A stretch of DNA of 58,225 bases. Origin: a virus (lineage: Duplodnaviria; Caudoviricetes). The first letter of the stretch is position 1. Each line of letters begins with the position of its first letter. The DNA is taken from positions 1 to 58,225 of the IMG/VR virus record IMGVR_UViG_3300025173_000082. One strand, 5' to 3'. A model generated the notes under the pieces. It searched no databases, was not told the DNA's origin, and saw nothing but the letters and a program-made list of their open reading frames with translations. Both the position numbers and the translations under genes were made by a program. Below, piece by piece: positions 10,334 to 51,284 of this stretch.

Positions 10334-10347
10334 GGTTGCGCTCCCCC

Positions 10348-10376
10348 TTGCCAACAATCATAGATTGTGCTAGTCT
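10348..10376 (+). promoter_or_regulatory. Sigma70-type promoter antisense to the late operon
   Basis: TTGCCA-17-TAGTCT with extended -10; spacer contains palindrome ACAATC-ata-GATTGT. Confidence 0.65.
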
Positions 10377-10383
10377 TGTACGC

Positions 10384-10551
10384 ATGGAATATGCCATTGC
10401 CAACGAACCTCAGATCACGGATGATGACGCCGCCGAAAGACTACGAACCCTATTCGTTGATCTCGTCGGTCCAGAGCGGGCACCGTCTTTGATAAAGGCT
10501 TTTTCCGAAGGTCTTGCCACACACCTCGAAGCAGTTCCACAGCCCCGCTAA
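10384..10551 (+). CDS. Candidate leaderless 55-aa protein antisense to the DarB-like 3' end
   Basis: ATG 7 nt after the -10 box; amphipathic helical sequence MEYAIANEPQ... Confidence 0.45.
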   Translation: MEYAIANEPQITDDDAAERLRTLFVDLVGPERAPSLIKAFSEGLATHLEAVPQPR

Positions 10552-20700: not shown

Positions 20701-22581
20701 CGACTCAATCTCCTGTGCGGCTTTCCTTAGATGTGCGCCGTACAATTTCGCGTGAGGCAGGCCGGCGTCCTGAAGCCGTCTTGAGAGTTCCGTCAACGTC
20801 CCGATAGTCGTAATCGCGTCGCTCTCCTCTGCATTGAGCCAGGTCGGGAGGTCGCTGGTCTCGACTCGGTTGGCGAAGACGACCACCTGACGGCCATTGC
20901 GCAGATGGTCTTGGATGGCGGCCATTGCTGTCTCAAGTTTGCGCGGCTCCAACAGATTCCGCAGTTTTTGGAGGCCGGTCATTTTTATGACCCCACGCCG
21001 TTTCGGGTCCGCGCCATCAACCGTGCGATTGAGGGCCTCATACTTGTTATCTTCGCGGGCTAATTCGTCGGGCGTGAGCGCAATCGGAGCCGTCGAGACA
21101 GTCAGATTGTCCATCGAGACTTCCCGTTTCACCATCAAACCACGTTTCGTCAAATCATCGAAAAGGCCCATGACGCGCATAAGCGCCTCGCGCTCCGGCA
21201 CAGTACGTTTCCAGGCCGACACCCCCCGCGCCACTTCGGCCCACTCATACCCTAACATCCGCATCGCTTTGGTATGCGACCAGCCGAAGGCTTCCGCGAG
21301 ATAGCCGAAATGCTCGGCTTTGTCCCCTGGCGTGGCGGTCAACAGCAGGGACTTCCGTGCGCGTTGCAGGAGCGCGAATCCGCGCTTGGTCTTCAGACTG
21401 CCGTAATTTTTCAGGTTATGGGACTCGTCGTAGACAACGAGGCCGGGACACGCCGCATCAAGGTCACCTTTGCCGAGGCGGGTGTAGGTGGACACATAAA
21501 TGCCTGGGGTCGTCATGGCACTGGCCGACGTGATCGGCGTGATCGGAATCTCCATGACCCGCGCATCGCTGCCGAACGCTTGTTCGATAATGCGTTCGTT
21601 CTGCGTGACAATCAGGACGGATTTGGTGGGATGGGCCTCACGATAGAGTTGAGCCACGGCGAGCGCTTGGCGCGTTTTGCCTGCCCCCGTCCCATCGCTG
21701 ATCAAAAAGCTCTTGGCCCCTTGCTGAAAACGCTGCCAGCACAACAAAACTGCCTCGGTCGCGTGGCGTTTTAGATGTCGTGCAAGAGCGCCGGGTACGT
21801 CCTGAGCGGCTGGTCGAACGGTGTAGTCGCTGCGGGAGAGCTTGATCCCGTCTGATAGATAGGGCTGCCCGGAGGTATCGGCAGGGCGTTCGTAGGATCG
21901 CGCTGCATTCGGAGGAGGCGGTTCTGGCGGAGAATCTCGTCGAACGCTATCTCGTAAATCAGCGGCACGTCGAACGTCTCCTCCTCGGTCTCCTCCTCGG
22001 TCTGGTTGGTCTGATCGGGATGCTGTGTCATGTGTGGCCTCCGCAATATAAAGTGATGGTATACCAGTGGACGGCGATTCTTCAATTTTTTTCCTGCGGG
22101 TGCCAATATACGGCGCGACCATGACCGGCCCCGCCTCCGTCTGCCGCATGTGGGCGGCAATCGGCACCTTGGTATCGAAGAGACTCAGTTGCGTTTTGCG
22201 GAACAGCCAAAGGCCGACGCGCTTGAACAGCGAGAGTTGGTCGCCTTTCATCTGCTGGTACATGGAGTCTTTCTTGACGAGTTCCTTCTTGGACCCGATC
22301 CAGGGCCTCGCCTCATGCGGCACCGGCTTGCCAGCCTCAACCGACAGAGCCTCCTCGCGCTTGACCCACCGACCCTCGCGCACTTCGTACCCGTACCGCT
22401 GCATCCTCTCATCCATCTCTTTGGTCGAAGGCCGGTGAGCGGCACTGAATATCGTGTCATCAATCGAGCGGCGCGTATCCTGATGCTCCTTCCCGTAGAC
22501 CTGCTGGCCCGTGTGCGGGTCGGCCCGGTAGTGACCCTTGACGCGGGCCTTAGAAAAGAGTAAGAGAAGCGCCTTTTTCAT
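17728..22581 (-). CDS. Giant polyvalent protein: Strawberry-notch-like SF2 helicase + FGKH..YLDW mini-domain + Zeta-toxin-like kinase
   Basis: DGTGAGKTRQ, DESHNLKN, GGTGLSL, QMLGRINR; FGKHRG...DPGYLDW; GAPASGKT, INADDVK, HEESS, RFVP. Confidence 0.85.
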   Translation of the reverse strand: MKKALLLLFSKARVKGHYRADPHTGQQVYGKEHQDTRRSIDDTIFSAAHRPSTKEMDERMQRYGYEVREGRWVKREEALSVEAGKPVPHEARPWIGSKKELVKKDSMYQQMKGDQLSLFKRVGLWLFRKTQLSLFDTKVPIAAHMRQTEAGPVMVAPYIGTRRKKIEESPSTGIPSLYIAEATHDTASRSDQPDRGGDRGGDVRRAADLRDSVRRDSPPEPPPPNAARSYERPADTSGQPYLSDGIKLSRSDYTVRPAAQDVPGALARHLKRHATEAVLLCWQRFQQGAKSFLISDGTGAGKTRQALAVAQLYREAHPTKSVLIVTQNERIIEQAFGSDARVMEIPITPITSASAMTTPGIYVSTYTRLGKGDLDAACPGLVVYDESHNLKNYGSLKTKRGFALLQRARKSLLLTATPGDKAEHFGYLAEAFGWSHTKAMRMLGYEWAEVARGVSAWKRTVPEREALMRVMGLFDDLTKRGLMVKREVSMDNLTVSTAPIALTPDELAREDNKYEALNRTVDGADPKRRGVIKMTGLQKLRNLLEPRKLETAMAAIQDHLRNGRQVVVFANRVETSDLPTWLNAEESDAITTIGTLTELSRRLQDAGLPHAKLYGAHLRKAAQEIESFQSGRAKIAIMTPQAGGTGLSLDDTTGHAPRAMVILTAPFAATDAVQMLGRINRLTTKSRCMATFLSAHGTAIDKWNQDIIHSKLKLLGATVQGDVANLDIEKLSTLSDEALEGVVKGGSVGVWEARHVDLGQVGLPHYGVAPAPTAPADTTASSTRTPLTVPPPSHVAFPKFPIGALGAYARFAPATPTGHWPDATIGFGKHRGATLSRLQQKDPGYLDWMFREMRLPFSVDVGSIDFVRQLAKTLRRKLLLFRKAVQGHFFRNEKVPVEGHLRQDHSGTVTYVKTHTATRKKKSEPIHENAPTPKRVTYPDGRLVPQVGDAVYQRVPGPFGTPASIHGEVYRKGAQLRVRVTKTAALIGGGGGTGKTYALTPHWTVQHDPEITRRTAAREAQRQDEKKHYEEEKHEGERRFRASYDAALEHGDQPFDFTTAYIGQVVRNHGVVRCGETESQRMIVGELETGGPHPFIGLTDPDQPEELAWPDHDDLTVPSGQDPERQRTEFEAQRQARKEAYDREEQARQAAWERELAEDDKRMQKASLPSRLLAFVKKAMPLTKARIRSYTRSDGTTVREHDDQRKSATPAQPHSRATAQQKVWAWHKPPNDVQEPRPRTVSAQKTAIHVVEPAEPGKMDEWLANIYAAHDLASAREEVSNGVATDRQHKDAATGEWTIARRRKHERIVHKILNPKAATKEGEQPQCVFLMGAPASGKTSALQPAAKDLGVAFTVINADDVKEQLPEYNGRNAGLVHEESSYIAEKLIAPEVLRRRHHTIWDVTGANTEKITQMVDIHHRHGYQITILYAHLPIEKAAARAVARFRDKGRFVPPEYVVNVVDGKPEQTYNALKGDSRVARFRRYDTDVPKNQQATLQEKGTRAEGAGSASAPVRKSQAGPGVQALREHGRRLHGSGHCWPPYRAGSAQALKAACARAASVRTALVKSLHTLDFDLDTPNLEPTVSGILRAERLTTLEKIAALDGRLKQLAAPNKGPS
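17931..18122 (-). CDS. Candidate nested out-of-frame gene just after the Zeta domain
   Basis: AGGAGG at 18133-18138; host frame here reads like an off-frame linker. Confidence 0.4.
   Translation of the reverse strand: MFPRISRLLFKKKVRGQKVLGVRPLLSEKAKQDQVCKLFGSMDDDYMDRVIAGLRTVPVPRKP
21771..22031 (-). CDS. Candidate nested out-of-frame acidic protein (86 aa)
   Basis: GGAGG-7nt-ATG preceded by TTGAAG-18-TACCAT; MTQHPDQTNQTEEETEEETFDVPLIYEIAF... Confidence 0.5.
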   Translation of the reverse strand: MTQHPDQTNQTEEETEEETFDVPLIYEIAFDEILRQNRLLRMQRDPTNALPIPPGSPIYQTGSSSPAATTPFDQPLRTYPALLHDI

Positions 22582-29726: not shown

Positions 29727-30067
29727 CAGTTGGCCGCCGCGAACGCGAGGGCGTGTGGATTCAGATCGCGCAACGCCTCGAAGGTGCCCTTCGTGTCCCG
29801 CAATTCCACCGCGTCGCCAGGCGCGAACGCGGAGGCCGTCGTGCCCTCTCGGCCACGCACGACCGTGAACGTGTCGGCTGCACGGGCGGTGACCTGCACG
29901 ATCTCCCGCGTACTGCCGACCTCCAGCGTGACCAGGAAAAAGTCGCCCCCGGTAATGGCCGGAAAGAGCGCCCCGTCACCAGACGCCACCGTGAGGCTGG
30001 TCGCCACGGACGTGATCCCGGCGGAGAGTGTACTCTTCGCGTTGTTGGCGAACAGTTGCTTGCTCAT
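29726..30067 (-). CDS. Virion structural protein
   Basis: FANNAKSTL...LFP...EIVQVTAR...RGREGT motif. Confidence 0.7.
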   Translation of the reverse strand: MSKQLFANNAKSTLSAGITSVATSLTVASGDGALFPAITGGDFFLVTLEVGSTREIVQVTARAADTFTVVRGREGTTASAFAPGDAVELRDTKGTFEALRDLNPHALAFAAAN

Positions 30068-31209
30068 ACGTGCTGTATCTCTTCCTCATCAAGAATCCGC
30101 CGTTGCTTCTCGGTCAGGAGATGCGTGGACACCGGCACCCACGAACAGCGACAGTGCGGGTGCAAGGAGATCACTGGGATCACGAATTCATCGGCGGGCC
30201 GATCCACCAGCGTCCCATCATCGAGGCGCTTCCGCTTCGCCAGCGAGCGCCCCACATTCATCACCGCTTTGCCAGGCCATACTTCCGTGTAGGGGTCCTT
30301 GTCCGGCTTGGCCGGGTCCACGATGGTAAAGACCGTCGCGTGCCACGTGGCACACCCCACACACGCCCCCGGATGCGCCAGCCAGCGCACCTGCTGCCCC
30401 ACCCCACGGGCGGAGAGATACCCGTCCGCTGCATTGTTGGCCGTTTCCGTCACGGCGATCCGCCGCCAGTCCCGATTGATCGTGCCGAACTCATCGGCCA
30501 GGGCTTGCGCGAGCGGGGGTCCCGCATACGTGGCGTACCCGGACACCACACGCCGCCGTTCCGCATCCAGAATGACTTTCTGGATGCGCGAGCGCGTCGC
30601 TGCCGTGAGGTCCGTCATCATCCGCGCCCCTTGCGTCTCCGCCAGTCGAATCCGCGCCTCATCCGTGGGATGCAGCGTCCACCGCCGTTTGGCTTCCGCC
30701 AGGGTGCCCGTGAGCGCGGCGATCATGGCCCTTGCTTTGTCGGGCGTCCCCGCCGCCGGGTCCTTGATCTCGTCCCGAATGAAGCCCGCAACGTATTGCT
30801 TCACGGCCTGCCGCTTGGCTACCGAAAGCGCCACCGACGGCGGCAGATAACGCATCATCAAGCAATCCACAATATCCATGTACTCCGCCAGCGAGAGGGA
30901 CCCAGGCGGGGCCGTGCGCGCGCGATGCTCCAAGTCCCGGCAGTGGGCCAGCGGATCGTCCGGCACGGCCTTGACCAGTGCGGCATGATCCAGCCCTCCC
31001 CTCAGCATCACGAGCATCCTCCGCTGGAGCGCGTCCAATGCCTGCGAGACCCAGGCGACGGAATCGTCCTCGACTTCGGCCAGAATCTCATCGGTCGGAT
31101 GCCGGTCATCGAGCAACGCATCCTCGACCGATTTGCACAGATAGTCCGTGACCGCATTGGCTTCTTCAGCGCGGACCTGTGAGGCATCAATCAACATGCC
31201 TGGCCTCAT
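30064..31209 (-). CDS. MuF/SPP1 gp7-like head morphogenesis protein
   Basis: RDWRRIAVTE, ACVGC, HPHCRC; directly after portal. Confidence 0.8.
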   Translation of the reverse strand: MRPGMLIDASQVRAEEANAVTDYLCKSVEDALLDDRHPTDEILAEVEDDSVAWVSQALDALQRRMLVMLRGGLDHAALVKAVPDDPLAHCRDLEHRARTAPPGSLSLAEYMDIVDCLMMRYLPPSVALSVAKRQAVKQYVAGFIRDEIKDPAAGTPDKARAMIAALTGTLAEAKRRWTLHPTDEARIRLAETQGARMMTDLTAATRSRIQKVILDAERRRVVSGYATYAGPPLAQALADEFGTINRDWRRIAVTETANNAADGYLSARGVGQQVRWLAHPGACVGCATWHATVFTIVDPAKPDKDPYTEVWPGKAVMNVGRSLAKRKRLDDGTLVDRPADEFVIPVISLHPHCRCSWVPVSTHLLTEKQRRILDEEEIQHV

Positions 31210-33014
31210 CCCACCACCACCACACTAGAACCGAGTATCGCCTTGCGGAACGCCATCGTGGAGCGCCCCTTATCCCGCTCCGCCACTTCAGGACGATTGA
31301 CCGGCCCGGTCGCCGCTGCCTCATCCCGATCTACCGAGTCCGTCAGCCGTGCCTGCACCGGACGGCCCGCTTCGTCTCTCTCTCCAGATGTCTCTGGCTC
31401 CGGTCCAGGCGATCCCCCTGACGCCCCCTCCGACATGCCAGGGTGTCCGCCCTGCGCCGCTTGCTGTGCGGCTTGATAGGCCGCCTGCAACATCGGATTG
31501 AGCGGCACATTGCCCCAGGCCCCCTCCGCCGGATCATTGCCATCCTGCTTCCGAAGTTCGTTGGCCGTGAGCGTGAGCTTGGCGACTTCGTGCTTCCAGG
31601 CCACGTCGTAGGGATGCAGGCCGAAGAACCGAAAGACGCAATCCTCGTCCAGTCGCAGGATCAGCGCATCCGTCAGGCCGTTCTCGATGAACGACATAAG
31701 GGGTTCCAGGCCCGTATCCCGTGCATCGGCAATCCGTTCGGCCATGTCTGAGCCGGACAGCGAGGACTTGCCCGCCGAAAAACTCTCGCTGTAAACCTCT
31801 GACGGGTCCATGCCGTACACCGAGCAGATGATCGCCGTGACGAGCACGATCCATTTGCTAAAATACATCTCGTTGAACTCCACACCGAACTTCGTGAATT
31901 CCGCGCCCGACTCTTTGTTCTCCGAGACCATCACGGGCATGGCCCAGGAGTTGTTCACGCCTTTCACCATTGAATTCCACTGTTGTTTGAAGAAGGCCAA
32001 TTGTTTCGTGTCGAACGACCCGAAGAGCGTCAGGAGGCCCTTGGGGATCGCGTTCGTGTCGAAGCCCTTGAGGTTATACGTCAGCGCGTTCAGGTAGCCC
32101 GTCACGACCTTCACGATCATTTCAGGCGGCGCGTAGCCGTACCCGCCAGACCGGATATCACTCCGAGGATTCTGCGCGAGATAGGCGATTTCGTGGGCCG
32201 TGAAGGTCGTGAGGGGTTGCCCGTTCACGACCTGGACCGCGATCACTTCGTCATCGCCCGCGTAGCCCTCTTCGGAGGCGAGATAGATGGTCGCGGCGTC
32301 GATGCAATGAAAGCCGTCCAGGAGCTTGTTGTTGCGCGTCGGGACGGTCTCGATGGCCCAGGCGTCCAGGGTCAAAATGTCACGGAGGCTTTTCGCCATG
32401 AACTCCGTCAGCCCGTCCCTGTTCAACGCCCGCTTCGCCTGTAGGGTCCGTGCCCAGCCCCCATGTAGCAGGAATTGCTCGATGGCCCGTTCGCGCTTGT
32501 CCCGTTTCTGGTTCGCGTCGTCGGAGCCGTCCATGCGGCGCACGGCAAACCCGATTTCCCGATCCGACTCTTTGGGCCGCAGAAACCGCCCGATCTGCCG
32601 GATACGCCGGAGGATGATGGCATTGATGAGTGGCGTGTGCTCGACCATGAGCCGCAAATGATCCGCGCCAAAGGCAGAGGGGCGCGTGATATAGCCGCCC
32701 GGCACTGAGCCCACAATGCCGAACTCATCCACAAAGACGGACTTGGGCTCATGGGGTGCCCGTGAGCGGGTTATGCCGGACTGAGAGGGCAATTCGCCCA
32801 TGCCTGCGTAGGGCCACAGATGGCCTTTGTGCAAGCCAGGCGCCTGGTCGTACTCCGCCGCCAACGCCTCGACCAGGGACGCTACATCGGTCGGGTTCGG
32901 CAGGTCTGAGCGCGTCGGCGCAAATGTCTGCATCATCTCGGCCCGCGCTGCAATCGCCTCGTTGGGCGGCGCGTTCGGCGACGACGCTACGTGATAGGTC
33001 TCGTCCACGACCAT
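31206..33014 (-). CDS. Portal protein
   Basis: NPRSD...GYGYAPPE, PKGLL, YGMDPSE, TANELRK; downstream of terminase. Confidence 0.85.
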   Translation of the reverse strand: MVVDETYHVASSPNAPPNEAIAARAEMMQTFAPTRSDLPNPTDVASLVEALAAEYDQAPGLHKGHLWPYAGMGELPSQSGITRSRAPHEPKSVFVDEFGIVGSVPGGYITRPSAFGADHLRLMVEHTPLINAIILRRIRQIGRFLRPKESDREIGFAVRRMDGSDDANQKRDKRERAIEQFLLHGGWARTLQAKRALNRDGLTEFMAKSLRDILTLDAWAIETVPTRNNKLLDGFHCIDAATIYLASEEGYAGDDEVIAVQVVNGQPLTTFTAHEIAYLAQNPRSDIRSGGYGYAPPEMIVKVVTGYLNALTYNLKGFDTNAIPKGLLTLFGSFDTKQLAFFKQQWNSMVKGVNNSWAMPVMVSENKESGAEFTKFGVEFNEMYFSKWIVLVTAIICSVYGMDPSEVYSESFSAGKSSLSGSDMAERIADARDTGLEPLMSFIENGLTDALILRLDEDCVFRFFGLHPYDVAWKHEVAKLTLTANELRKQDGNDPAEGAWGNVPLNPMLQAAYQAAQQAAQGGHPGMSEGASGGSPGPEPETSGERDEAGRPVQARLTDSVDRDEAAATGPVNRPEVAERDKGRSTMAFRKAILGSSVVVVG

Positions 33015-33162
33015 GCAAGCCCTCCCCCTGTTTCTGCACGGTGGCAGAAGATCAGATGAAAATCAAGGGTTGTTAATAAATTCTTTGCGCGTCGTGAATG
33101 GATAGCTCTGCCACGAGTCCCATGCCTCGACCCGCGCCTCCTCGATCATGCGTCTTCCTCTT

Positions 33163-34620
33163 TCAGTGCTGGCGGCCAGTACGCGCCCCACATCGTTTCC
33201 AGCGGGTCGTGCCGTCGGGCCGGTCTTCCAGGATGATGCCCTGCGCAGCCAGGTCGTTCCGAATCGCATCGGCCTTTGCAAACTCCTTGTTGCGCCGAGC
33301 ATCGTGGCGGTCAGCGATGTGCCGTTCAAGATCAGTCTCGCCGAGAACGGCATGATGGTCTGCACACTCCCATTCCTTCACGGGCACGAGGAACAGCCCC
33401 AGCCCCTGGCCCACGCGCCGGAACATCGCCCGCACATCGGCTCGTGCCTGAGACGACAATCCGGTGTGGAGCATGGTATTGATCTCGCTCCGCAGTCGCT
33501 GACACGCGGCAAGAGCGACGGGCGTGTTGCAGTCATCGTCCATCGCCTGTTCATAGGCCGCCGCACACTTCGACAGGCGCGCTGTGACCTCGCTATCGGC
33601 CACCTCCGCAGCGGTGGGCTGTTCGTCGAGGCGCAGCAAGAGGTCATACACCGTATTCAGACCAGCTCGCGCCTGACGCAAGGCCTCGTCCGAAAAATCA
33701 ATCGGACTGCGGTACTGCGTCGAGAGCAGGAAATACCGCACGACTTCGGCTGTCACAGGCTCGGGGGCCGGAAACTTCTCAAAGACCTCACGAATCGTAA
33801 AGAAATTGCCGAGCGACTTGGACATCTTCTCCTGATCCACCGTGACGAACCCGTTGTGGACCCAGTAGCGGGAGAATTCCTGGCCGGTGGCGGCGCAGGA
33901 TTGAGCGAGTTCATTTTCGTGGTGCGGAAAGATCAAATCCTGCCCACCCCCGTGGATGTCAAACGTCTCGCCAAGGTGCCTCATGGCCATCGCCGAACAT
34001 TCAATATGCCAGCCGGGACGCCCCGGTCCCCAGGGACTCTCCCAGGAAGGCTCGCCAGGCTTGGATGACTTCCACAGCGCGAAGTCCATGGGATTCCGCT
34101 TGCGCTCGTCCACCTCCACCCTCGCGCCGGCCAAGAGGTCCTCGGCCTTCCGTTTCGACAAGCGTCCATAGGCCGGATACTTCTCGACTTGAAAGTACAC
34201 ATCGCCGGCGACTTCATAGGCCATGCCCTTCTGGACAAGTGCTTCGACCAACTTGATGATGTCGGCCATGTGTTCTGTGGCTTTGGGCTCGACGGAAGCT
34301 TGGCGAACACCAAGTTTCCCCATGTCTTCATGGTAGGCCTGTATGTATTTCGCGGTGATCGTGTCGCAACTGACGTTCTGTTCGTTTGCGCGTTTGATGA
34401 TCTTGTCATCAACGTCCGTAAAATTCTTGACGAACTCGACGCAGTAGCCGGAAAACTCTAAATGGCGACGAATAACGTCGAAGACCAGGGCGCTCCGTGC
34501 ATGCCCCAAATGACACTCGTCATAGACGGTGACGCCGCACACGTACATCTTGACCTGCCCAGGCACCAGCGGCTCAAAGGGGTCTTTGTGGCCGGTCAGG
34601 GTATTAAAGAGGGTCAGCAT
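33163..34620 (-). CDS. cysS: Cysteinyl-tRNA synthetase
   Basis: MLTLFNTLT, MYVCGVTVYD, HLGH (HIGH), NFTDVDDKII, DFALWK, GRPGWHIECS, FPHHENE, KMSKSLGN, ADAIRNDL..GIILED. Confidence 0.95.
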   Translation of the reverse strand: MLTLFNTLTGHKDPFEPLVPGQVKMYVCGVTVYDECHLGHARSALVFDVIRRHLEFSGYCVEFVKNFTDVDDKIIKRANEQNVSCDTITAKYIQAYHEDMGKLGVRQASVEPKATEHMADIIKLVEALVQKGMAYEVAGDVYFQVEKYPAYGRLSKRKAEDLLAGARVEVDERKRNPMDFALWKSSKPGEPSWESPWGPGRPGWHIECSAMAMRHLGETFDIHGGGQDLIFPHHENELAQSCAATGQEFSRYWVHNGFVTVDQEKMSKSLGNFFTIREVFEKFPAPEPVTAEVVRYFLLSTQYRSPIDFSDEALRQARAGLNTVYDLLLRLDEQPTAAEVADSEVTARLSKCAAAYEQAMDDDCNTPVALAACQRLRSEINTMLHTGLSSQARADVRAMFRRVGQGLGLFLVPVKEWECADHHAVLGETDLERHIADRHDARRNKEFAKADAIRNDLAAQGIILEDRPDGTTRWKRCGARTGRQH

Positions 34621-34941
34621 CGGTCGGCACTCCACGCAAAAGCCCCGATGAACGGCACAAAAACGCAGTCTCCCAAGTCGCTCATCTTCAGCGTCCCTCG
34701 TTGTTTCACTCCGAGTTGCAAGGCCTGGCGAGTCCGATCGCCAACCGGGATGACCACCCGCCCGCCTTCCTTCAACTGCTCCACCAGCAACGACGGAATG
34801 GACGGAGATCCGGCCGCCACCAGAATCGCATCGAAGGGTGCCGCCTCTCCCCACCCATAGGTGCCGTCGCTGTTGCGGGTTGCCACATTCCGATACCCCA
34901 GCCGGTCGAGCCGCTCACGCGCCTTCACCGCCAGCGACTCC
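34614..34941 (-). pseudogene. pcm: C-terminal half of protein-L-isoaspartate O-methyltransferase
   Basis: DGTYGW.EAAPFDAILVAA, LVEQLKEGGRVVIPVG, VFVPFIG; N-terminal SAM motif I absent. Confidence 0.85.
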
Positions 34942-34945
34942 TCTA

Positions 34946-37060
34946 TTATGCGTCGTCCTCTTTCGGGTCGTACTGGTCCTCGCAGGCCGGATACCCGGCC
35001 TCCGTGCCCATGCGCTTCGCCTGACAGAGCTTGAGTGCCGCGCTAAAATGCGTACAGATGCCACAGGTGGCCGTGATCGGTTCCGGGGCGACCGGCATCG
35101 CCAGGCGCGTCTGCATCTGCGTCAGGTCCGCCGCGTCCCGAACGGACAGGTCAGGCCGCGTCGCTTGCAGGGCTTCCACCGTGGGCGGCAGCGCCCCCTG
35201 CGGGACGATCAAGGCCGTGCCCCCGACCCGCCGCGTCGCCGCCATCACCGCATAGGTCCAGGCATGAGCGAAATGCGGGTCAATCCCGATGTTCTCCCAC
35301 ACCATGCGAAACTCGCCGGTTTCGACGGTCTCGCCGGTTTTACTATCCCGCCTGGCGACCGCGAGCTTATGCCGGGCCACCGAGCGCAGATGATAGAACA
35401 GCCCTTGCTCCTTTGTGTCCGGGCTCCCCAGGCAGACATGGGACTGCATCGGCACGCCCATCACCTTCACGGTCTGCACCAGCCCACGCGGATGCGGGCA
35501 CACCACGCGCCGAGTGACCCACTGCATGAGCGCGTACTCAATCGCCTTATACCGATCAAGGAATACGTGAAACTCGAACTTCGCGTCCGGGCGAGCGCCC
35601 CACAGAGCTTTCAGTTCGCCGTCGCGATCCGACCAGCGGATCATGTGGGCATTGTCCGTGTAGTACGCCAGGAACACCCGCCTCTTGAACCGCTTAGCAA
35701 ACTTGACCGCTTCGTTGTAGCTGGGGAGCGCGTCTATCACGCACACGTCCACATCGAAGCGGGCCATCAATTCGTAGAGCCTGGCGAAGGGATCATCCCC
35801 CTGCACGATCTCCACATGCGCCATCTGGAGCTTGCCGTCGTCACGGACCGTGAGGATCACGGCATGGTTCTCTCCGCCGCGCTGGTCCACCCCCATCAAA
35901 CAGTTGGTCCCCTTGTGCTGCCACGGGACCGACTCGTCTACGCACGTCAACGCGACCGATTCCGGCACCAGAATATTGTCCGGGTCCACCCAGGGGAGTC
36001 CCAGCGTGGAATTATAGAATTCCTTCCGGTCGGTCGCCTCCAAGTACTTCTGCCAGATGCCCGCCGCCGTCTTGACCGGAGACACGATTTGCGACACATG
36101 AAACCCGCTCACGCGGGATTCTGGTTGCCGGGGCACATACCAGCCGTCCCCCGGATGCTCAATCCGCCGGTCGCATCGCGGACAGCGCCACCAGACTTCC
36201 ACGCCGCGCACCCCGACACTATCGGGGAAGGTATGCGCAAGCGACACGCCTTCCCGGCACCCGCACCGGCTATGCCAAACGTGCATCGTAGACTGCTTGA
36301 AGTAAGCATTGATGTCGCAATCGGGGAAGCCTGCGGTGCTGAGCTTGAATATCAGCGGCACGTCCGCATGGCTCACACGCTCCGAGGCCAGTTCGATCTC
36401 CCCCATCGTCATCCGCCGCACTTCATCAAAGAAAAGCGCGTCCATCGGGATGGCTTCCGTTGAGGTCTTGCCGCCCATGTAGGAGAAATACACCGTGGAT
36501 TCGCCCAGCGTGCGGACACGCTTTCGGTCATCCGCCTTGGCCTCGCGCCCCACCAGTGACGGGGGCGCTCCAAGCATGGCCCCCACGGTCGGGTTCGATA
36601 TGATGAGCGGATAAAACCGATTCGACGAAAAGATGTCCGCGAGTTCCCGGTCCGGAAGAAAGTAACCGACGTTGCGCCCCCAGCGTTTCAGCGCCGTGAA
36701 CGTGGTCGCCGTGAGCGCCGCGCCGGACTTCCCGACTTGCGCCGCCGTCTGGAGTACCACATCCAGCCGTCCCTGTTTCCGCGCCCGCCCCAGGTCAAAG
36801 GCCGCGTACACGTCCTTCAGGTACGCATGTTGGGAAAATTCGAGAGGCCGCTTGTCGAGCAAAAAGGGATTCGCCTGGACGAACTCAAGGAGGGTGTCCG
36901 GCAGGTCACGCACGAACGCTGGTGGCTCCATCAGGCGAGACTGCCCCATACCACCGAGCAGCGCACAGATCGCGCCCCACATCCGCTCTTCAGCCGAGAC
37001 GAGCGGGGTGCCCGGCGAGATCGGCTTGGATCGCGGTGAGGATGCGAGGGTCAGCGACAT
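34946..37060 (-). CDS. Terminase large subunit (GpA-like)
   Basis: AAQVGKS, FFDEV, Zn finger, FYNSTLGLPW, MGVDQ, IDALP, DPHFAH. Confidence 0.88.
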   Translation of the reverse strand: MSLTLASSPRSKPISPGTPLVSAEERMWGAICALLGGMGQSRLMEPPAFVRDLPDTLLEFVQANPFLLDKRPLEFSQHAYLKDVYAAFDLGRARKQGRLDVVLQTAAQVGKSGAALTATTFTALKRWGRNVGYFLPDRELADIFSSNRFYPLIISNPTVGAMLGAPPSLVGREAKADDRKRVRTLGESTVYFSYMGGKTSTEAIPMDALFFDEVRRMTMGEIELASERVSHADVPLIFKLSTAGFPDCDINAYFKQSTMHVWHSRCGCREGVSLAHTFPDSVGVRGVEVWWRCPRCDRRIEHPGDGWYVPRQPESRVSGFHVSQIVSPVKTAAGIWQKYLEATDRKEFYNSTLGLPWVDPDNILVPESVALTCVDESVPWQHKGTNCLMGVDQRGGENHAVILTVRDDGKLQMAHVEIVQGDDPFARLYELMARFDVDVCVIDALPSYNEAVKFAKRFKRRVFLAYYTDNAHMIRWSDRDGELKALWGARPDAKFEFHVFLDRYKAIEYALMQWVTRRVVCPHPRGLVQTVKVMGVPMQSHVCLGSPDTKEQGLFYHLRSVARHKLAVARRDSKTGETVETGEFRMVWENIGIDPHFAHAWTYAVMAATRRVGGTALIVPQGALPPTVEALQATRPDLSVRDAADLTQMQTRLAMPVAPEPITATCGICTHFSAALKLCQAKRMGTEAGYPACEDQYDPKEDDA

Positions 37061-37517
37061 GCTTCCTCAAGATGCTCATGAACCGAGCGGCCACCGCTTG
37101 CACGGTCCCCTCGGTGATCTTCATGGAGGCCGCCAACTCGACTTGTGATTTCGTCTTGATGGCCTCCAGTCGCCGTTCGACCATCTGGCTGATCGCCACC
37201 AACTGCCCCGGCTCTTGCCCCCGCAGGGCCTCGCAGTCGGCAATCTTGCCGACGAGCACAGTCAAGAATGCGATATCGTCGTCCATGGTGTGCAGGTCGG
37301 GATGCTGCTTGATCTCGGCAATCAAGTCCTGGTACTGCGCCCGCAATACTTTGGAGTAGAGGCCATGCTTGATCGTGGCCGAAATACCGCCGTGGAGCCA
37401 GCATCGTCCAATCCTCGGATGATCTGTCCGACTGCCCGCTGTTTGCTTGCAGGTCCGGTCTTTCTTGCGGAGCTTGGCCCCGCAGAGCGCTACGGTAGAT
37501 GGCTTGGTATGTCTCAT
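36990..37517 (-). CDS. Terminase small subunit-like protein (HGG motif)
   Basis: CGAK...C...GRCWLHGG...KHGLYS directly upstream of terL. Confidence 0.75.
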   Translation of the reverse strand: MRHTKPSTVALCGAKLRKKDRTCKQTAGSRTDHPRIGRCWLHGGISATIKHGLYSKVLRAQYQDLIAEIKQHPDLHTMDDDIAFLTVLVGKIADCEALRGQEPGQLVAISQMVERRLEAIKTKSQVELAASMKITEGTVQAVAARFMSILRKHVADPRILTAIQADLAGHPARLG

Positions 37518-38029: not shown

Positions 38030-38758
38030 TTAGAAGTTGTCAATATTTTCAAATCGGGCATCACGGTCCCGCACGGCAATCACATCGCACATCCCGACGA
38101 TGCGAGACACGATGGGTGCGCCGATTTGTGTGTCGAGTTCGTCCAGCGATTTGTTTGTAGTGAGAATTATGGGTAGAACGTAGTTGTACCGATAGTTAAT
38201 AAGTTCGTAGAGTGTGCTGCGTACCCAGTCGGTCACGCGCTCCTGCCCTAGATCGTCGAGGATGAGGTATGGTGTCTGACTCGTCTGGCGAAGCAACTCC
38301 GTCGTGTCTCCTCCGCGCTCGATCCGGCTGCGGAGCGCAGTGAGCCAGTCCGACACCGTCCACCACTGCACCGTCTGTCCGCATCGCACCAGGTCTCGTC
38401 CGATGGCGGCGGCCATGTGTGTCTTGCCGGTGCCTGGCGGGCCGGAGAAGACAATCCCTCTGCAACTGGCGGGGGCGGTGATGAACGCAGCGGCGGCGCG
38501 GAGCGCTGTCCGATTGCCGTCGGAGGCGATCAGGTCGGTGAGTGACGCCTGCGCGTAGCGTGGGGGGAGTCGTAGCGTGCGCTGGAACCGGTCTCTGCGC
38601 TCCCGTGTGTCCGTGTCCGCCGCCGGCGGCGGCGCGGGTGATGACGTGGTGGCAACGTCCATGCGTTGCTTTAGCGTAGCGAGCACGACTTGCACCGCGT
38701 CTCCTAGCGGCGCCAATGTCTCGGCGTGTTCGATCCGGTTGTGTTGTGCAGTTAGCAT
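38030..38758 (-). CDS. DnaC/IstB-like helicase loader ATPase
   Basis: GPPGTGKTHMA, LILDDLG, ILTTN, SRIVGM. Confidence 0.9.
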   Translation of the reverse strand: MLTAQHNRIEHAETLAPLGDAVQVVLATLKQRMDVATTSSPAPPPAADTDTRERRDRFQRTLRLPPRYAQASLTDLIASDGNRTALRAAAAFITAPASCRGIVFSGPPGTGKTHMAAAIGRDLVRCGQTVQWWTVSDWLTALRSRIERGGDTTELLRQTSQTPYLILDDLGQERVTDWVRSTLYELINYRYNYVLPIILTTNKSLDELDTQIGAPIVSRIVGMCDVIAVRDRDARFENIDNF

Positions 38759-39474
38759 TGTGTGACTCCTGCGTATTTTCCTGTATGGTCTGTTTGTGGC
38801 TGCTTCGTCGGCTCAGCTTTATTGAGCCAGTTGAGGAAGGCGCGTTTGGTGGCGGTGCGTTCGTGGGCGGTCATCCATGTTTTGCATTTCTCATATTCGA
38901 TCCTCACGTTGATGCCGGCCCCTCCGTAAGCCGGAGACTGTTCTTGTGCGAGCAAGAATTCTTCATCGACTAATTTTGGATGCGCCGCATTTTTCTTTTG
39001 CGTGGCGTCTCTCTCTCTCTCAGACTCTCTCTCTCTCTTCTCTTCTCTTTCTTTCTTCTCTGTCTCTGTCTCTGTCTCTGTCTCTGTCTCTGAGAGAGCA
39101 TTTTGCTTGCATGGTGCTATCATTGTGCTAGTTCGGAGCTTGCGTGATGCTATCAAGAATCCTGCGTTTATTAGCGGAGTTAAATCAGGTTTGTACGTGA
39201 GTCGCATAGTCAATTGGATATAGATAGGGTCATTAGGAATGAGGTTATTTTGGCGACTCGCAACCAATAAAAACGTTAAATAATGCCCACGTTGCACAGC
39301 ATCGAGCGCTAAAAAGTCTGGATCGTTCAAAATATCGTAGTATAATTTGATCCACGGCGGGGATCGTTTTTTGTAATGCTGGTAACGCTCGAAATTCTTC
39401 ACGGAGAGAAATTCTTGCCCTCGTCGCCTGGTCGTGGGAGGCGTGACAGACTCACCGACGTTGTGCGTAGCCAT
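38752..39474 (-). CDS. Phage replication initiator
   Basis: NFERYQHYK...PWIKLY, ETETETETE linker, AFLNWL; upstream of DnaC-like gene. Confidence 0.8.
   Translation of the reverse strand: MATHNVGESVTPPTTRRRGQEFLSVKNFERYQHYKKRSPPWIKLYYDILNDPDFLALDAVQRGHYLTFLLVASRQNNLIPNDPIYIQLTMRLTYKPDLTPLINAGFLIASRKLRTSTMIAPCKQNALSETETETETETEKKEREEKRERESERERDATQKKNAAHPKLVDEEFLLAQEQSPAYGGAGINVRIEYEKCKTWMTAHERTATKRAFLNWLNKAEPTKQPQTDHTGKYAGVTQC
39008..39091. repeat. Polypyrimidine / (TC)n and (TCTCTG)n tract inside the initiator gene
   Basis: tctctctc...ctctgtctctgtctctg. Confidence 0.85.
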
Positions 39475-39763
39475 ACTTATGTGCCCCAACTTGCACTACA
39501 TGAGACACGATTGACTAGTTTGGCTAACTGAGTATCCCACGCTTTCCTTAGATGGAAGTCCGCATCGCGCTTGACGTAGGACAATTCGATTGCGTCCCGT
39601 GCTGCCATTCGTTTCACGATTTCCCCCCACTGAGAATCATCATCCATATAGCCAATCCAATCACGAGCAGGGTCGGCGTGATCGCCGCCCCAGCCAGGAA
39701 CCCCCACCAAAAGTCGCTACGGTAGTATATCGGCATCCATAGGAGCGGCGTCATCGTGTCTCC

Positions 39764-40714
39764 TCAATACTCCAATGCGGTTTGCCGCGCCGTATCCAGG
39801 CAGTGCGGCGAGTAGTAGAGACACTCCCTATGGCGGTTGGCTGCGGCGCCCGTGTCGTCCTTCCCTATATTGCCATAGCCCCCGTTCGCCGACCACTGCT
39901 CCACGCGCCACCCGTGCCGCTCAAGTTCGACATGCTCCTCATAGCCCGCCAGCACGATGCGATACCGTGGATTGTCCCCGCGTGAGAGGCACCAGTCCCG
40001 TACCTCGTGGGCGACATCAGTCGAATCATGTGCGTAGATATCAGTATCACGATCCACGCATCCATACGGGGGATCGAAGAACATCCCCACGATCCCACTG
40101 GCGTCTTGCCAGTTCCCCCCGCATACCCTGGGCCAGTCCCCACAGACCACTTGCACACGCCGCAGGCGTTCCGACAACTCGCGGAACCATGTATAGATAC
40201 TAGGCGTATACGGTTCCTGTACGCCCTTGCCGCCGCGGGAGATGTGCGGGATCTGGCCCATCGCGTGTACGCCCTTGCCGCCGCCGGAGATGTGCGGGCG
40301 CTGGCCTGGGCTGGTCATGCCTGACCCAATCCAACACGATGCGGCCCAAATCCAATACCCCGCCAGCGTCGCATCGTAATAGTCAGGGTCTGTGGTGAGT
40401 TTTCCGAGCAGATCGCGTTGCTCACGGCACAGGCGCATTTTTCGCGCGGACAAATCCGCATGATTCACGGGCCAGTCGCAGACCTTCGCCACCGCGTCGG
40501 GATCGGCTTGCAGCGCCCGCCACACGTTGGCAATATGGCCGTCCGCGTCGCAGATCGTCTCGATGTGGTCGCGCGGATCGCCGCCAGGGCGATTGAGCAA
40601 CACCGCCCCCGACCCGAAAAACGGCTCGATGTACCGCTTCGGCTGGCCGAGCGCCCGCCACACGTTGGCGGCCACGGTGCGCTTGCCGCCGAAATACGGA
40701 AACGGGGCCTTCAT
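39764..40714 (-). CDS. DNA adenine methyltransferase (D12/Dam class)
   Basis: PFPYFGGK, YIEPFFGSGAV, FFDPPY. Confidence 0.9.
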   Translation of the reverse strand: MKAPFPYFGGKRTVAANVWRALGQPKRYIEPFFGSGAVLLNRPGGDPRDHIETICDADGHIANVWRALQADPDAVAKVCDWPVNHADLSARKMRLCREQRDLLGKLTTDPDYYDATLAGYWIWAASCWIGSGMTSPGQRPHISGGGKGVHAMGQIPHISRGGKGVQEPYTPSIYTWFRELSERLRRVQVVCGDWPRVCGGNWQDASGIVGMFFDPPYGCVDRDTDIYAHDSTDVAHEVRDWCLSRGDNPRYRIVLAGYEEHVELERHGWRVEQWSANGGYGNIGKDDTGAAANRHRECLYYSPHCLDTARQTALEY

Positions 40715-40757
40715 ACGTGTTTCCACCTACCGTGTATACACCTGCGCAGTGTGCGCG

Positions 40758-40967
40758 TCATGCCCATCCCTTTTGCTGCGCAATCCACTGCGAGCAGACC
40801 AGGGTGCCCGTGTCACCCTCTGCGTGGACCTGGCTGGAAACGTGTATCTGTGATTTCGGCATCCATACAGGCTCCTCGTCGGGGCTGCGTCTGATCTTCA
40901 TCGCCTTCTCGGTCTGCCCAATGCACGTCGCCCCTTTCAGGGTATACAGCGGACTATTCTCATCCAT
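40758..40967 (-). CDS. Small phage protein
   Basis: TEKA...WMPKSQI...WIA.QKG; AGGAGG RBS. Confidence 0.65.
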   Translation of the reverse strand: MDENSPLYTLKGATCIGQTEKAMKIRRSPDEEPVWMPKSQIHVSSQVHAEGDTGTLVCSQWIAQQKGWA

Positions 40968-41051
40968 GTCGTGCCCTCCTTGTTGTGAGGGTTCTGCATC
41001 AGCGCAGCACTCCGCATCGCTCCAGATTGATCTTTGCTGCGGCGCGTCCAG

Positions 41052-41114
41052 TGTCCCGCGCCGCGTGATCGTGTTGTTCCGGAGTCTTCATCACGGCGTC
41101 ATCCTCGTCCGTTG
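41052..41114. repeat. 63-bp exact direct repeat, copy 1
   Basis: Identical to 44268-44330. Confidence 0.92.
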
Positions 41115-41140
41115 TAGCCGGCGAGGCCAATCCCGCATAC

Positions 41141-42190
41141 TCAGCCGTGCTTGTTTTGTTTGTCATACTCAACAATCCTTTGTCCGATCCACTCGACGAT
41201 TTGCGGCACCACGGCGTTCCCCAGCCCCTTCAGCCGGGGCACACGGCGGGGCACGCCCTGCGCGGTGCGCGGCACCCCGCTCTCCCAGTCACCATCGTCC
41301 CAGTGTGACGAGCATGGCAGCGGACCATGGAGGATTAGTCCACCGCCGTCCACTCCGGCGGATAACCCATCAGCGCCTCCACCCACGCCGGATTCAGTTG
41401 GCCGCCTATCACGGTCACCAGATCGTCCCCGCCGCTCCCCGTCCTTGTCCTCCGCGCCACGTCTGGCCCGCCCTGACTGGCCTTCGGCGTGGGCCAGTGC
41501 GCCCCGCCCTTTTTTTGGATCACCGTGGACAGGCTGAGCGAATGCGCCTTCGGGTTGCAGTTGGCGCCCATAGCGTGATGATCTCTCGTGGTCGGCGTCG
41601 GCCAGACGTTCACTGCGTTCGCCAACCCCACCTGCCGCTTGCCCGTGGCCGTCCGACACTTGTTCAGCACATCCTCTCGCGTCATGTTTCGCCCGCCGTT
41701 CGGCACATCTGGCGTGGGCCACAATCCAGACGCGCTTGCGCAGATGCGGCGCGCCAAAGGTGGCAGCGGAAAGCACGCGCCATTCCGCATCGTAGCCGAG
41801 GACGGCCAAGTCTCTAAGTACATCTCCCACTGTTCGAAGAAGCAACCCTGGCACGTTCTCCACGAGCACGTAGGGTGGTCGTAGTACGCGAAGGCACCGA
41901 ACGAATTCAGGCCAGAGCCATCGCGCATCGGCTGTGCCGAGCTGGTGGCCGGCGACACTGACCGGCTGACAGGGGAATCCTCCGCACACGAGGTCAACGG
42001 GTGCGACTCTTGCCCACTCAACGGTGGTGATGTCCCCGTAGCGCGTGACGCGGGGCCAGTGCTTTGCGAGGACTTTTTGACAATACGGCTCATACTCCAC
42101 CTGCCATTCAATCTCCATGCCAGCCCGTTCCAGGCCCAAGTCAAACCCGCCAATGCCGGCAAATAACGACCCGACCGTCAAAATCGCCAA
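41141..42190 (-). CDS. C5 cytosine DNA methyltransferase (alpha frame)
   Basis: SLFAGIGG, GGFPCQ, VENVPG, HLRKRVW, LGNAVVP. Confidence 0.92.
   Translation of the reverse strand: MAILTVGSLFAGIGGFDLGLERAGMEIEWQVEYEPYCQKVLAKHWPRVTRYGDITTVEWARVAPVDLVCGGFPCQPVSVAGHQLGTADARWLWPEFVRCLRVLRPPYVLVENVPGLLLRTVGDVLRDLAVLGYDAEWRVLSAATFGAPHLRKRVWIVAHARCAERRAKHDARGCAEQVSDGHGQAAGGVGERSERLADADHERSSRYGRQLQPEGAFAQPVHGDPKKGRGALAHAEGQSGRARRGAEDKDGERRGRSGDRDRRPTESGVGGGADGLSAGVDGGGLILHGPLPCSSHWDDGDWESGVPRTAQGVPRRVPRLKGLGNAVVPQIVEWIGQRIVEYDKQNKHG
41335..42093 (-). CDS. Overlapping alternative-frame C5-MTase beta-type polypeptide
   Basis: Three WPTP repeats and GQLNPAWVEALMGYPPEWT (motif IX-like); start uncertain. 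Confidence 0.75.
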   Translation of the reverse strand: MSRIVKKSSQSTGPASRATGTSPPLSGQESHPLTSCAEDSPVSRSVSPATSSAQPMRDGSGLNSFGAFAYYDHPTCSWRTCQGCFFEQWEMYLETWPSSATMRNGACFPLPPLARRICASASGLWPTPDVPNGGRNMTREDVLNKCRTATGKRQVGLANAVNVWPTPTTRDHHAMGANCNPKAHSLSLSTVIQKKGGAHWPTPKASQGGPDVARRTRTGSGGDDLVTVIGGQLNPAWVEALMGYPPEWTAVD

Positions 42191-50056: not shown

Positions 50057-50081
50057 ACGGTCCTCCTTCGATTCAGAGTGC

Positions 50082-51284
50082 TCACCCGACCTCCGCCATC
50101 AGATGCCGGTGTTTCTCCATCAGCGCGGGGAGTTCGGCCTCGGCCACATGCCCCGTCACCACCCGCAACACCGCCTCGTCAGCCGACATGACGGCCTGCA
50201 TCCCCGCATCGCGCGCGCGGTCTTCGCGGGCAATCTCCAGGTCGCACTGGATGGCACCCGGCAGACTCGCAATCAGCCGCGTGGCGGCCGCATACTCCTC
50301 CGGCGTCACCGTGTCCTTCACGCGATAGACCGTGCCCGGCGTCAGGTCCAGAGTTTTCAGGTCCGCCACCCGCACAGTCTGATACGTCCGTGCAAAGGGA
50401 TTCGGGACGACCTCGACCTTGGGCGTCTTTCCGGCCTCCACCTCCACGAGCAGAAAGCCCTTGCGCTCATGTTCTTCTCCGAAGCTGTTCCGCATCAGGC
50501 TCCCGCTGTACCACGCGCGCTCCCCAACGGCTTGCGCCTGATGAATATGCCCCAGCGCGACGTAATCGAACGCCTCGAATGCGTCAGCGGGCAGCAGAAT
50601 GTCATGGGCCAGTGAGCGCGGCTGATCCCCTACTCGTGCGCCGTCCACCGAGCCGTGCGCGAGCAGGATACGTGGGAGCAGGACGTGGCGCGGATGAGCG
50701 TGGCCCTGGGAACCGTTCACGTCACGTGACATATCGGACGACACGTGGGCTGAGAATCCGCGCACAAGCGCCCGGAGACCGTCATTGATCGCGGCGGTGA
50801 CCGCCTCCGGCGTCAGATCGGCCGCCGCCTGGTCCGCCAGGAGTCGGCCCCGCGTGGGATACGGTAAGAGACAGAGCGCCACCGGCCCGGCACTGGTGTC
50901 GAGCGTGTACGTGTCGGGGCGCTCGAAGATGAAGACATTCTCCAACCCTTTCAGGCTTTCCAAGGCCGTCGCATCCGAGGGCGACTGCGAGATGTCATGG
51001 TTGCCCGCGACGATGACGACCGGCACCTTCGACGCCATCAACATGATGGCCCTGAGAATCACTCGGATTTCGTTGGCGTGGGGGCGGGCGGAATCGAAGA
51101 CATCGCCAGGGATCACCACGGCGTCGCAGCATCCATCCACGACCGCCACGGTATAGGCATAGTCCAGGGCACGGGCGAGATCGGTCAGCGATTGATTGAG
51201 GCCGGTTGCAGGGTCGATCACGGTCTGCCCGGCCATGGTCGCGGCATTGGCCGGATGCAGATCAGCAAGGTGCAAGAGTCGCAT
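50082..51284 (-). CDS. sbcD: SbcD/Mre11-like nuclease
   Basis: ADLH, GDVFD, GNHD, ALGHIH, YSGS. Confidence 0.9.
   Translation of the reverse strand: MRLLHLADLHPANAATMAGQTVIDPATGLNQSLTDLARALDYAYTVAVVDGCCDAVVIPGDVFDSARPHANEIRVILRAIMLMASKVPVVIVAGNHDISQSPSDATALESLKGLENVFIFERPDTYTLDTSAGPVALCLLPYPTRGRLLADQAAADLTPEAVTAAINDGLRALVRGFSAHVSSDMSRDVNGSQGHAHPRHVLLPRILLAHGSVDGARVGDQPRSLAHDILLPADAFEAFDYVALGHIHQAQAVGERAWYSGSLMRNSFGEEHERKGFLLVEVEAGKTPKVEVVPNPFARTYQTVRVADLKTLDLTPGTVYRVKDTVTPEEYAAATRLIASLPGAIQCDLEIAREDRARDAGMQAVMSADEAVLRVVTGHVAEAELPALMEKHRHLMAEVG

Follow-up and report, generated by a model that had tools for sequence, protein, structure and literature searches.

A pcm'–cysS segment of cellular origin lodged between terL and the portal gene in a temperate phage, and the patchwork structure of its cysteinyl-tRNA synthetase gene

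Full-length class I aminoacyl-tRNA synthetases of cellular type are borne by jumbo or huge phages and by giant viruses. Lambdoid morons are extra, non-essential host-like genes lodged between two conserved phage genes, and classical morons carry their own promoter and terminator. Cyanophage psbA, a widespread and clearly selected phage gene, is a host–phage mosaic whose internal segments have been swapped with cellular alleles by homologous recombination. Finally, specialized transducing phages of the lambda gal/bio type are temperate phages that hold an uninterrupted stretch of the host chromosome, at the ends of which the genes are cut short. The segment described here has features in common with each of these systems. 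It is located in a 58,225-bp IMG/VR record (IMGVR_UViG_3300025173_000082, class 'provirus', CheckV completeness estimate 64%), the whole of which is referred to below as the window, and it consists of the 3' half of pcm (hereafter pcm') and a complete cysS gene, encoding cysteinyl-tRNA synthetase (CysRS). It lies between terL, which encodes the large terminase, and the portal gene, and is oriented like the late genes.

The differences from these systems are as follows. Jumbo phages have genomes of hundreds of kilobases and synthetases that are 38–46% identical to that of the window, whereas the present case involves a 58-kb record of a temperate phage. The gene, accompanied by a fragment of its host neighbor, is located in the terL–portal interval and reaches, in parts, 95–99.5% identity to a cellular locus. 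Unlike a classical moron, the segment showed no promoter or terminator of its own on the coding strand: a scan of positions 32800–35300 limited to sigma-70-type sites placed its 2 promoter-like sites on the plus strand and detected no convincing terminator, the single minus-strand candidate being a 5-bp stem inside cysS where 2.2 are expected by chance. The donor locus and both junctions are readable at the nucleotide level. In contrast to psbA, this cysS is so far a singleton, codes for an essential translation enzyme, and has patches from three lineages of the host's class. Compared to the DNA of specialized transducing phages, the piece is away from the attachment or integrase end, replaces no phage DNA and is flanked by a short phage duplication. 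Host-gene capture by a temperate phage is a known class of event; it is the cargo, the legibility of the junctions and the mosaic that are unusual.

The explanation that we favor, and consider likely, is that a temperate phage captured pcm'–cysS from a bacterium of a lineage referred to as A by illegitimate recombination, that cysS then recombined with cellular alleles, and that the gene is most likely a passenger. The donor-type locus (L162) is found on a 369,180-bp cellular metagenome contig, where the gene order is lysC, a citramalate/isopropylmalate-synthase-like gene, a MerR-like gene, pcm, cysS and an rlmB-like gene (see Table 1 for the collinear region). Its CysRS, P0002 (476 aa), is the nearest cellular relative of the whole window protein (87% identity). 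The overlap between the pcm stop and the cysS start (ATGCTGA) is identical in the window and in the cellular loci, and the 5' end of the insert matches L162 at 428 of 430 nt, far beyond chance. A reading of the window made from its sequence alone (the sequence-only reading) had described a host-like pcm'–cysS segment inserted between terL and portal. A cellular pcm–cysS locus with the same overlap supports the host origin, and Pfam and PHROG matches identify terL and portal on either side of the segment, all on the minus strand.

The piece is chromosomal DNA of a lineage-A (L162-type) bacterium of the Nitrospira class. The nearest named CysRS relatives belong to Nitrospira and to metagenome-assembled genomes (MAGs) of Nitrospirota. 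Against 301 genomes of the class, the A-type protein reached at most 78% identity when matched full-length and 80% in a partial match; therefore, lineage A and the lineage B introduced below are relatives within the Nitrospira class. A scan of genome contigs for CysRS gave a best identity of 62% among the matches listed (at least 600 stretches). In two Nitrospira MAGs (L002 and L003, ~4543–7530), cysS follows surE and a DedA-like gene instead of pcm, so that the pcm–cysS adjacency marks the A/B lineages and less than the whole group.

Neither junction coincides with a place of phage–host homology: one cuts pcm midway, the other falls inside the cysS stop codon. On the left, host-like similarity begins at position 34939, 6 nt past the last base of the terL TAA, about as close to the terL stop as the sequence-only reading had placed it. 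Phage and host agree there at 8/10 positions (phage GAGGCGCGGG, preserved in the right copy of the repeat described below; host AAGTCGCTGG), with no agreement farther out. The right border follows the TG of the cellular cysS TGA, which overlaps the ATG of the next gene in L162. Since the base after this TG is a T, the stop becomes TGT and the frame continues to a TGA at 33165–33163. All 7 relatives aligned end in ...GTTRWKR or ...GTSRWKR, and the window protein goes on for 9 residues, CGARTGRQH. The native stop, suspected from the outset to have been lost at this junction, is indeed where homology ends. As for pcm', the open reading frame (ORF) covers positions 113–206 of the 210 of the PCMT model (PF01135), consistent with the initial view that only the 3' half of the gene is present, and its score of 97–99 bits is below all the NCBIfam equivalog cut-offs (159–188). 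The protein is identical to L162 pcm (ORF 8268–9050) from KARERL onward; the VLEIGTGSGY stretch of the full-length L162 protein lies upstream of the junction, and pcm' is devoid of the N-terminal half that binds S-adenosylmethionine. We infer that the fragment cannot be an active methyltransferase.

The identity of the window CysRS to P0002 varies along the protein. For residues 38–200, identity reaches 98% with P0009 and 96% with P0013, P0014 and P0043, although the whole protein is only 72–74% identical to these. We refer to locus L205 of that group, which displays the same pcm–cysS–rlmB synteny, as lineage B. Comparison with L162 and L205 reveals that the captured cysS is a patchwork with lineage-A ends, a lineage-B patch at codons ~38–191 and a patch from a third source at codons ~213–262 (Table 1). 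The latter (33831–33980) has its best match, among the loci compared, in L175 (88% over 117 nt). The crossovers coincide with the regions of HIGH and WHIECSAM, where conservation is highest in the gene. Maximum-likelihood trees place the phage sequence inside the B clade for residues 38–191 (95/99, the A clade being separated at 100/99) and as the sister of P0002 for residues 1–37 plus 263–476 (100/99): the two partition trees conflict with strong support. As pcm' is A-type up to the junction, the capture itself was from an A-type chromosome. The mosaic would then result from homologous recombination of the phage copy with cellular cysS alleles, with crossovers in conserved motifs. The suggestion of a recent capture gives only half the story, as at least three cellular cysS lineages have contributed to the gene. 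Note that P0014 (498 aa, from a 3,799-bp contig) groups with lineage B in the tree of residues 38–191, whereas in the tree of the remaining residues it is placed next to lineage A at the end of a long branch (0.43); judging from these positions, it could be another A/B recombinant that arose independently.

The mosaic might conceivably predate the capture, a lineage-A host having already possessed an A/B/third/A cysS that was copied in a single recent event. Cellular cysS genes seem to recombine too, as illustrated by the change of group of P0014 between trees, and the 99.5% identity of pcm' and the first 110 nt of cysS to L162 fits a recent event. However, the lineage-A cellular alleles that we have seen, i.e. 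L162 and the host-type contigs of sequencing run X1 (see below), are non-mosaic, a search of 5.8 billion proteins returned none between 87% and 100% identity to the window CysRS, and the flanking repeat is more diverged than the ends of the insert. We therefore regard a pre-existing mosaic as unlikely and retain exchange after capture.

If the insertion is real, it should be present in independent assemblies. The Logan contigs of run X1, which may derive from the source sample itself or from a sister sample, contain 0.81 of the sampled words of the stretch compared. Contigs with 0 differences correspond to positions 32700–33220 (within a 7,632-nt contig), 33814–34010, 34017–34539 and 34910–35300 (within a 4,176-nt contig). 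The first and the last of these comprise phage DNA plus exactly 30 letters of the insert, on either side. An overhang of 30 letters is what is expected at the edge of a repeat if the Logan word length is 31. In an independent assembly, contigs with 0 differences thus extend 30 nt over each junction. The 523-nt contig covering 34017–34539 spans both breakpoints of the B patch; since this single contig contains the whole patch with A-type ends, the patch is no artefact of the assembler used for the window. The host-type locus is also present in X1, in contigs matching 34510–34939 (1 difference) and 33191–33739 (13 and 12 differences, L162 allele), the loose ends of which continue into L162-type pcm upstream and into rlmB-like sequence. 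Contig depths, a poor measure, are 66–75 for phage-only contigs, 66.5 for one contig specific to the host allele and 120–132 for those common to both, a hint that the phage copy in X1 has the host allele in its 3' part. In runs X2–X4, of which the shares are small, the contigs match parts of cysS only and are uninformative on the phage; they include lineage-B-like cysS, e.g. a 503-nt contig with 15 differences over 34062–34548.

These contigs also bear on the possibility of a chimera, in which an assembler would have joined host pcm–cysS reads into a phage contig, the true phage having terL beside portal. It is true that the host-type locus of X1 shares long identical stretches with the insert (contigs 34510–34939 and 33191–33739) and that part of the insert, 33221–33780, has no exact copy among the X1 contigs. 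But (i) the exact identity between phage and host at the junctions is at most 1–2 nt and the 8/10 agreement on the left is imperfect, which is too short for a k-mer assembler; (ii) the 0-difference contigs of a second assembler contain the junction 31-mers on both sides; (iii) the flanks bear a diverged 34-nt duplication of phage sequence, beyond what an assembler can invent; and (iv) the B patch, missing from the host-type allele, occurs in one contig with A-type ends. Altogether, the lack of shared junction sequence, the flanking duplication and the junction words of the second assembler make a chimera very unlikely.

The duplication just mentioned is a 34-nt imperfect direct repeat that brackets the insert (29/34 identical positions, 85%, with a start-to-start spacing of 1800). 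Its local alignment score is 55, versus 27.2 ± 5.1 for shuffled sequences, 1/500 of which reaches 55. In the right copy, GACGCATGATCGAGGAG, a terL-type end is followed by a TGA that overlaps the ATG of a 28-codon ORF. In the left copy, GACGCATAATAGAGGAG, the terL stops remain (TAA, then TAG) and the ATG of the small ORF has become ATA, so that the codons ATA ATA GAG GAG are in frame with pcm'. Some 27–34 nt of phage sequence are thus duplicated on the two sides of the insert, which entered at the exact boundary of terL and the small ORF formerly next to it; the 28-codon ORF is probably this original neighbor. The GAGGAG sequence had been proposed to drive translation of pcm' from the GTG at 34928. 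It is present 9 nt upstream of this GTG and may still be usable as a ribosome-binding site, but it originates from codons 3–4 of the small ORF in the duplicated start region and is therefore duplicated phage coding sequence. The insertion would first have made a small-ORF::pcm' fusion, the start of which was lost later.

Entry of the segment could be accounted for by microhomology-guided illegitimate recombination or template switching rather than by transposition or aberrant excision. The phage is temperate, with an integrase, and such phages can take up DNA beside the attachment site, as in specialized transduction. Yet ~22 kb separate the insert from the end with the integrase, and late-operon genes lie on both sides of it. 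A transposable element is no easier to invoke: there is no transposase, none of the 15 pairs of inverted repeats reported lies at the ends of the insert, and an imperfect duplication of 27–34 nt does not resemble a target-site duplication. Both mechanisms are also at odds with a cargo made of a truncated gene and a gene without its own stop. Of all the explanations that we weighed, aberrant excision or transposition has the least to commend it, its probability being close to nil.

How do related phages look at this position? No close relative of terL was found in IMG/VR by means of peptide patterns, and a search of 1.84 billion representatives gave best identities of 58% and 55%. An alignment-based scan of IMG/VR led to 80 terL-related loci, of which L242 is the closest related phage (terL 54% and portal 56% identical). 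In L242, the terL stop is separated by 277 bp from the portal start, an empty site such as the one expected of an uninterrupted relative, and the end of terL (...ERAEE-TGA) overlaps, as ATGA, the start of a 99-codon ORF, the same arrangement as in the right repeat copy. Of the 80 loci, 28 have a portal match downstream of terL, and this match begins within the first 15 portal residues in 15. Among the latter, the gap measures 31–334 bp in 8 loci and 2.2–6.4 kb, with mostly unannotated small ORFs, in the other 7 (L298, L305, L306, L314, L316, L317 and L320). These 7 loci indicate that the terL–portal boundary is a recurrent site for extra genes in the wider group, and it seems to be a cargo hot spot. 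Pfam searches with 10 gap ORFs of relatives gave 2 matches, a PAAR motif and a 2OG-Fe(II) oxygenase, none of them translation-related. We also observed that the L242 terL (L242:6971–10192, ~1,070 codons) matches that of the window in two stretches, as does P0202 (1032 aa), which suggests, at the level of sequence, an intein or other insertion inside the L242 gene.

Several observations weigh against the capture, exchange and passenger status proposed above, or at least restrict them. The exact window protein forms a cluster of 1 member on 2 contigs, i.e. a single observation, and none of the 14 runs listed as containing the stretch is recorded as RNA. The 30-letter overhang of the X1 contigs is 1 letter below the bridging criterion of 31 at each junction, and no junction-spanning read was seen. 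The window allele of 33221–33780 is absent from the X1 contigs, which have the L162 allele there (13 and 12 differences); it could be a strain variant or the assembler's choice. In addition, 3 of the 27 positions of the repeat that are phage sequence alone have diverged between its copies, compared to 1 of ~320 between pcm' and L162, and a simple 'very recent single event' fails to account for both the divergence of the repeat and the near identity of pcm'. Two timings are possible: an older insertion, the ends of which have been held close to the current host by gene conversion, or a recent insertion with fast change of the repeat, 2 of the 3 changes removing the fusion ATG. Furthermore, no CysRS-like sequence was found in any of the 80 terL-related loci, among which the pcm'–cysS cargo is unique. 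Lastly, the Cys content of the late proteins is 0.96%, versus 1.25% in 7 host ORFs, so that no extra demand for Cys-tRNA is apparent.

The CysRS itself looks intact, as first noted on the basis of its HIGH, KMSKS and zinc-ligand residues. It matches TIGR00435 with 557 bits (cut-off 340) over model positions 1–465 of 466 and PF01406 with 453.6 bits over positions 2–300 of 301, and it can be aligned end to end with the Escherichia coli enzyme (1LI5), residues 1–476 facing residues 1–460. The HIGH and KMSKS motifs (HLGH, residues 37–40, and KMSKS, residues 265–269) align with those of E. coli CysRS and fall in invariant or nearly invariant columns of an 8-sequence alignment; the WHIECSAM and PHHENE motifs are conserved. 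At the zinc site, which we take to comprise C28, C209, H234 and E238 in the E. coli protein, C28, the Cys of WHIECSAM and PHHENE are identical to 1LI5 and invariant in the same alignment. Of the C-terminal matches, DALR_2 scores 38.2 bits (cut-off 22) and CysS_C 22 bits (cut-off 23). Judged by its sequence, the product should be a CysRS that works and is not harmed by its 9-residue tail. The cysS ATG is preceded, at 9 nt, by its native GGAG, and the gene would be transcribed with the late operon, i.e. together with terL and portal, and translated from this native GGAG/ATG. The ratio of nonsynonymous to synonymous substitution rates (dN/dS) is 0.11 for the B patch versus L205 and 0.20 for the 3' part versus L162, against 0.14–0.19 in cell-to-cell comparisons, and the B patch has 3 phage-private codons (1 I-to-V change and 2 synonymous ones). 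With so few private codons and such low ratios, the pieces look freshly taken from working cellular genes; the low dN/dS would thus indicate an intact gene and say nothing for selection within the phage.

Could the gene nevertheless be a selected auxiliary gene, kept to charge Cys-tRNA for the synthesis of late proteins or for a benefit to the lysogen relating to an inhibitor or toxin, or to sulfur or persulfide metabolism? An auxiliary role in translation or sulfur metabolism had been raised in the sequence-only reading, and our checks yielded nothing in its favor. Its full length, its low dN/dS, its sense orientation within the late operon and its native ribosome-binding site would all suit such a role. 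The loss of the fusion ATG, together with the retention of the terL stop, could reflect tidying by selection, and the pieces from three lineages suggest a long stay in the phage over several recombination events. However, the low dN/dS may be inherited from the cellular donors, given the 3 private codon changes in the patch, the late proteins have no Cys excess, CysRS is missing from the 80 terL-related loci, and the dead pcm' fragment and the chance 9-codon tail look like an unpolished capture. On balance, selection for the enzyme is a tentative option, somewhat doubtful in our eyes; cysS would most likely be tolerated as a moron-like passenger, a specific benefit to the phage or lysogen being possible.

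Precedents for a viral CysRS, which speak for an auxiliary role, do exist. Among 50,697 phage records, 21 contain a CysRS-like gene, in every case with less than 60% identity to the window protein. Annotated phage cysS genes are found in genomes of 328–469 kb, namely those of Acinetobacter phage MD-2021a (328–379 kb) and Sinorhizobium phage Phosso (469 kb). A CysRS search of IMG/VR matched 97 stretches, from which 80 loci were kept (best identity 48%); according to our reading of the resulting table, most of these are at the extreme edge of provirus records or in records of more than 150 kb. Internal copies were seen in L130 (50.7-kb record), where cysS (5980–7374) is near Pam3 gp33/gp34-like genes, and in L155 (44 kb), where it (6001–7308) stands beside a class II synthetase-like ORF, an NAD synthase and a DNA methylase. 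Full-text literature searches, the scope of which did not extend to supplements, yielded no paper describing a cysS gene in temperate phages or in phages of Nitrospira. One paper (PMC6375957) mentions synthetases in mimiviruses, which are giant viruses, and a single one in Bacillus phage G.

Table 1. Positions in the window of the insert, of its patches and borders, and of the phage genes around it
Feature	Positions	Strand	Evidence or remarks
Host-derived segment, 1749 bp, collinear with L162 8725–10473	33191–34939	minus	blastn and global alignment
pcm' ORF, 104 aa, GTG start at 34928	34614–34928	minus	PCMT model, E 3e-28
cysS, 485 aa (476 native + 9 added codons + stop)	33163–34620	minus	TIGR00435
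Lineage-A segment, pcm' and cysS codons 1–37	34510–34939	minus	L162 428/430 (99.5%); L205 359/430 (83.5%)
Lineage-B patch, cysS codons ~38–191	34051–34509	minus	L162 311/459 (67.8%); L205 439/459 (95.6%)
Short lineage-A stretch, WHIECSAM region	33981–34050	minus	L162 68/70 (97.1%); L205 58/70 (82.9%)
Third-source patch	33831–33980	minus	L162 123/150 (82.0%); L205 114/150 (76.0%)
Lineage-A 3' segment	33191–33830	minus	L162 612/640 (95.6%); L205 434/640 (67.8%)
Nine added codons CGARTGRQH and new TGA stop	33163–33192	minus	junction inside native TGA
Left repeat copy	34931–34964	minus	terL end and stop, then ATAATAGAGGAG
Right repeat copy, contains GCATGATCGAGGAG	33131–33164	minus	terL-type TGA overlapping small-ORF ATG, as in L242
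Small ORF, 28 codons, MIEEARVEAW...	33063–33149	minus	sequence; L242 has an analogous ATGA-overlapping small ORF
terL, large terminase, 704 aa, end ...KEDDA-TAA	34946–37060	minus	Pfam GpA_ATPase 8.3e-11; phrog_675 1.2e-70
ORF without family match	36990–37517	minus	
Portal, 602 aa	31206–33014	minus	Pfam Phage_portal 3e-12; phrog_15361 and phrog_12
Minor-head match, weak	30064–31209	minus	PHROG
Tyrosine integrase, running off the window end	57056–58225	plus	Pfam Phage_integrase 2.5e-13

The exact CysRS protein of the window is also recorded on a 110,972-bp contig in the protein search, which indicates that the IMG/VR record is a part cut from a longer, presumably cellular, contig. A single 'provirus' record combines an integrase gene with terL, portal, minor-head and tail-fiber-like genes, as expected for a temperate tailed phage; the integrase and the database label agree with the initial assignment of the phage as temperate. 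According to PHROG matches, the tail-fiber-like genes come after the portal and minor-head genes on the minus strand. Further phage functions in the window include a DnaC-like protein, Dam and Dcm methylases and SbcCD-like proteins; no tRNA genes were found in it. The Dam-like (D12 class) and Dcm-like methylases and the SbcC/SbcD-like pair are encoded in the early region, on the minus strand (39764–42190 and 47771–51284). A 245-aa ORF (38752–39489, minus strand) adjoining the DnaC-like gene contains a TETETETETE run followed by a K/E/R-rich part and has no Pfam match. Finally, three consecutive giant ORFs occupy positions 4311–22581 on the minus strand. They encode proteins of 1617 aa (helicase and Zeta_toxin domain), 2438 aa (N6 DNA methylase and SNF2 helicase, split by LAGLIDADG and HINT, intein-like, domains) and 1838 aa (InPase domain and helicase), a trio that looks like a DarB-like anti-restriction or defense module.

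Most phage-borne host genes are observed long after their capture, when the junctions and the donor are no longer legible. Here, the donor-type locus, both points of breakage, the phage target in its two copies, the inactive remnant of pcm and the 9-codon tail acquired by accident can all still be read nucleotide by nucleotide, and the cargo is an essential translation enzyme that is rare outside very large phages. The patchwork of three lineages implies that the phage copy exchanges sequence with host genes, and the phage would be a vehicle able to move cysS segments between related hosts. One may go further and propose, quite tentatively, that the prophage cysS acts as a shuttle, recombining with the chromosomal cysS of each host across lineages A, B and the third one and possibly depositing segments there. 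We would not put this proposal above the auxiliary-gene option, and it goes well beyond the capture and exchange that we favor. If it is true, the host range of the phage spans the three lineages, and this would provide a mechanism for mosaic core genes in uncultured relatives of nitrifiers. If the enzyme is expressed, the phage offers a simple natural case for asking what, if anything, a phage or its lysogen gains from an additional synthetase. More generally, if the exchange is two-way, temperate phages could spread segments of core genes among related bacteria that are environmentally important and hard to culture.

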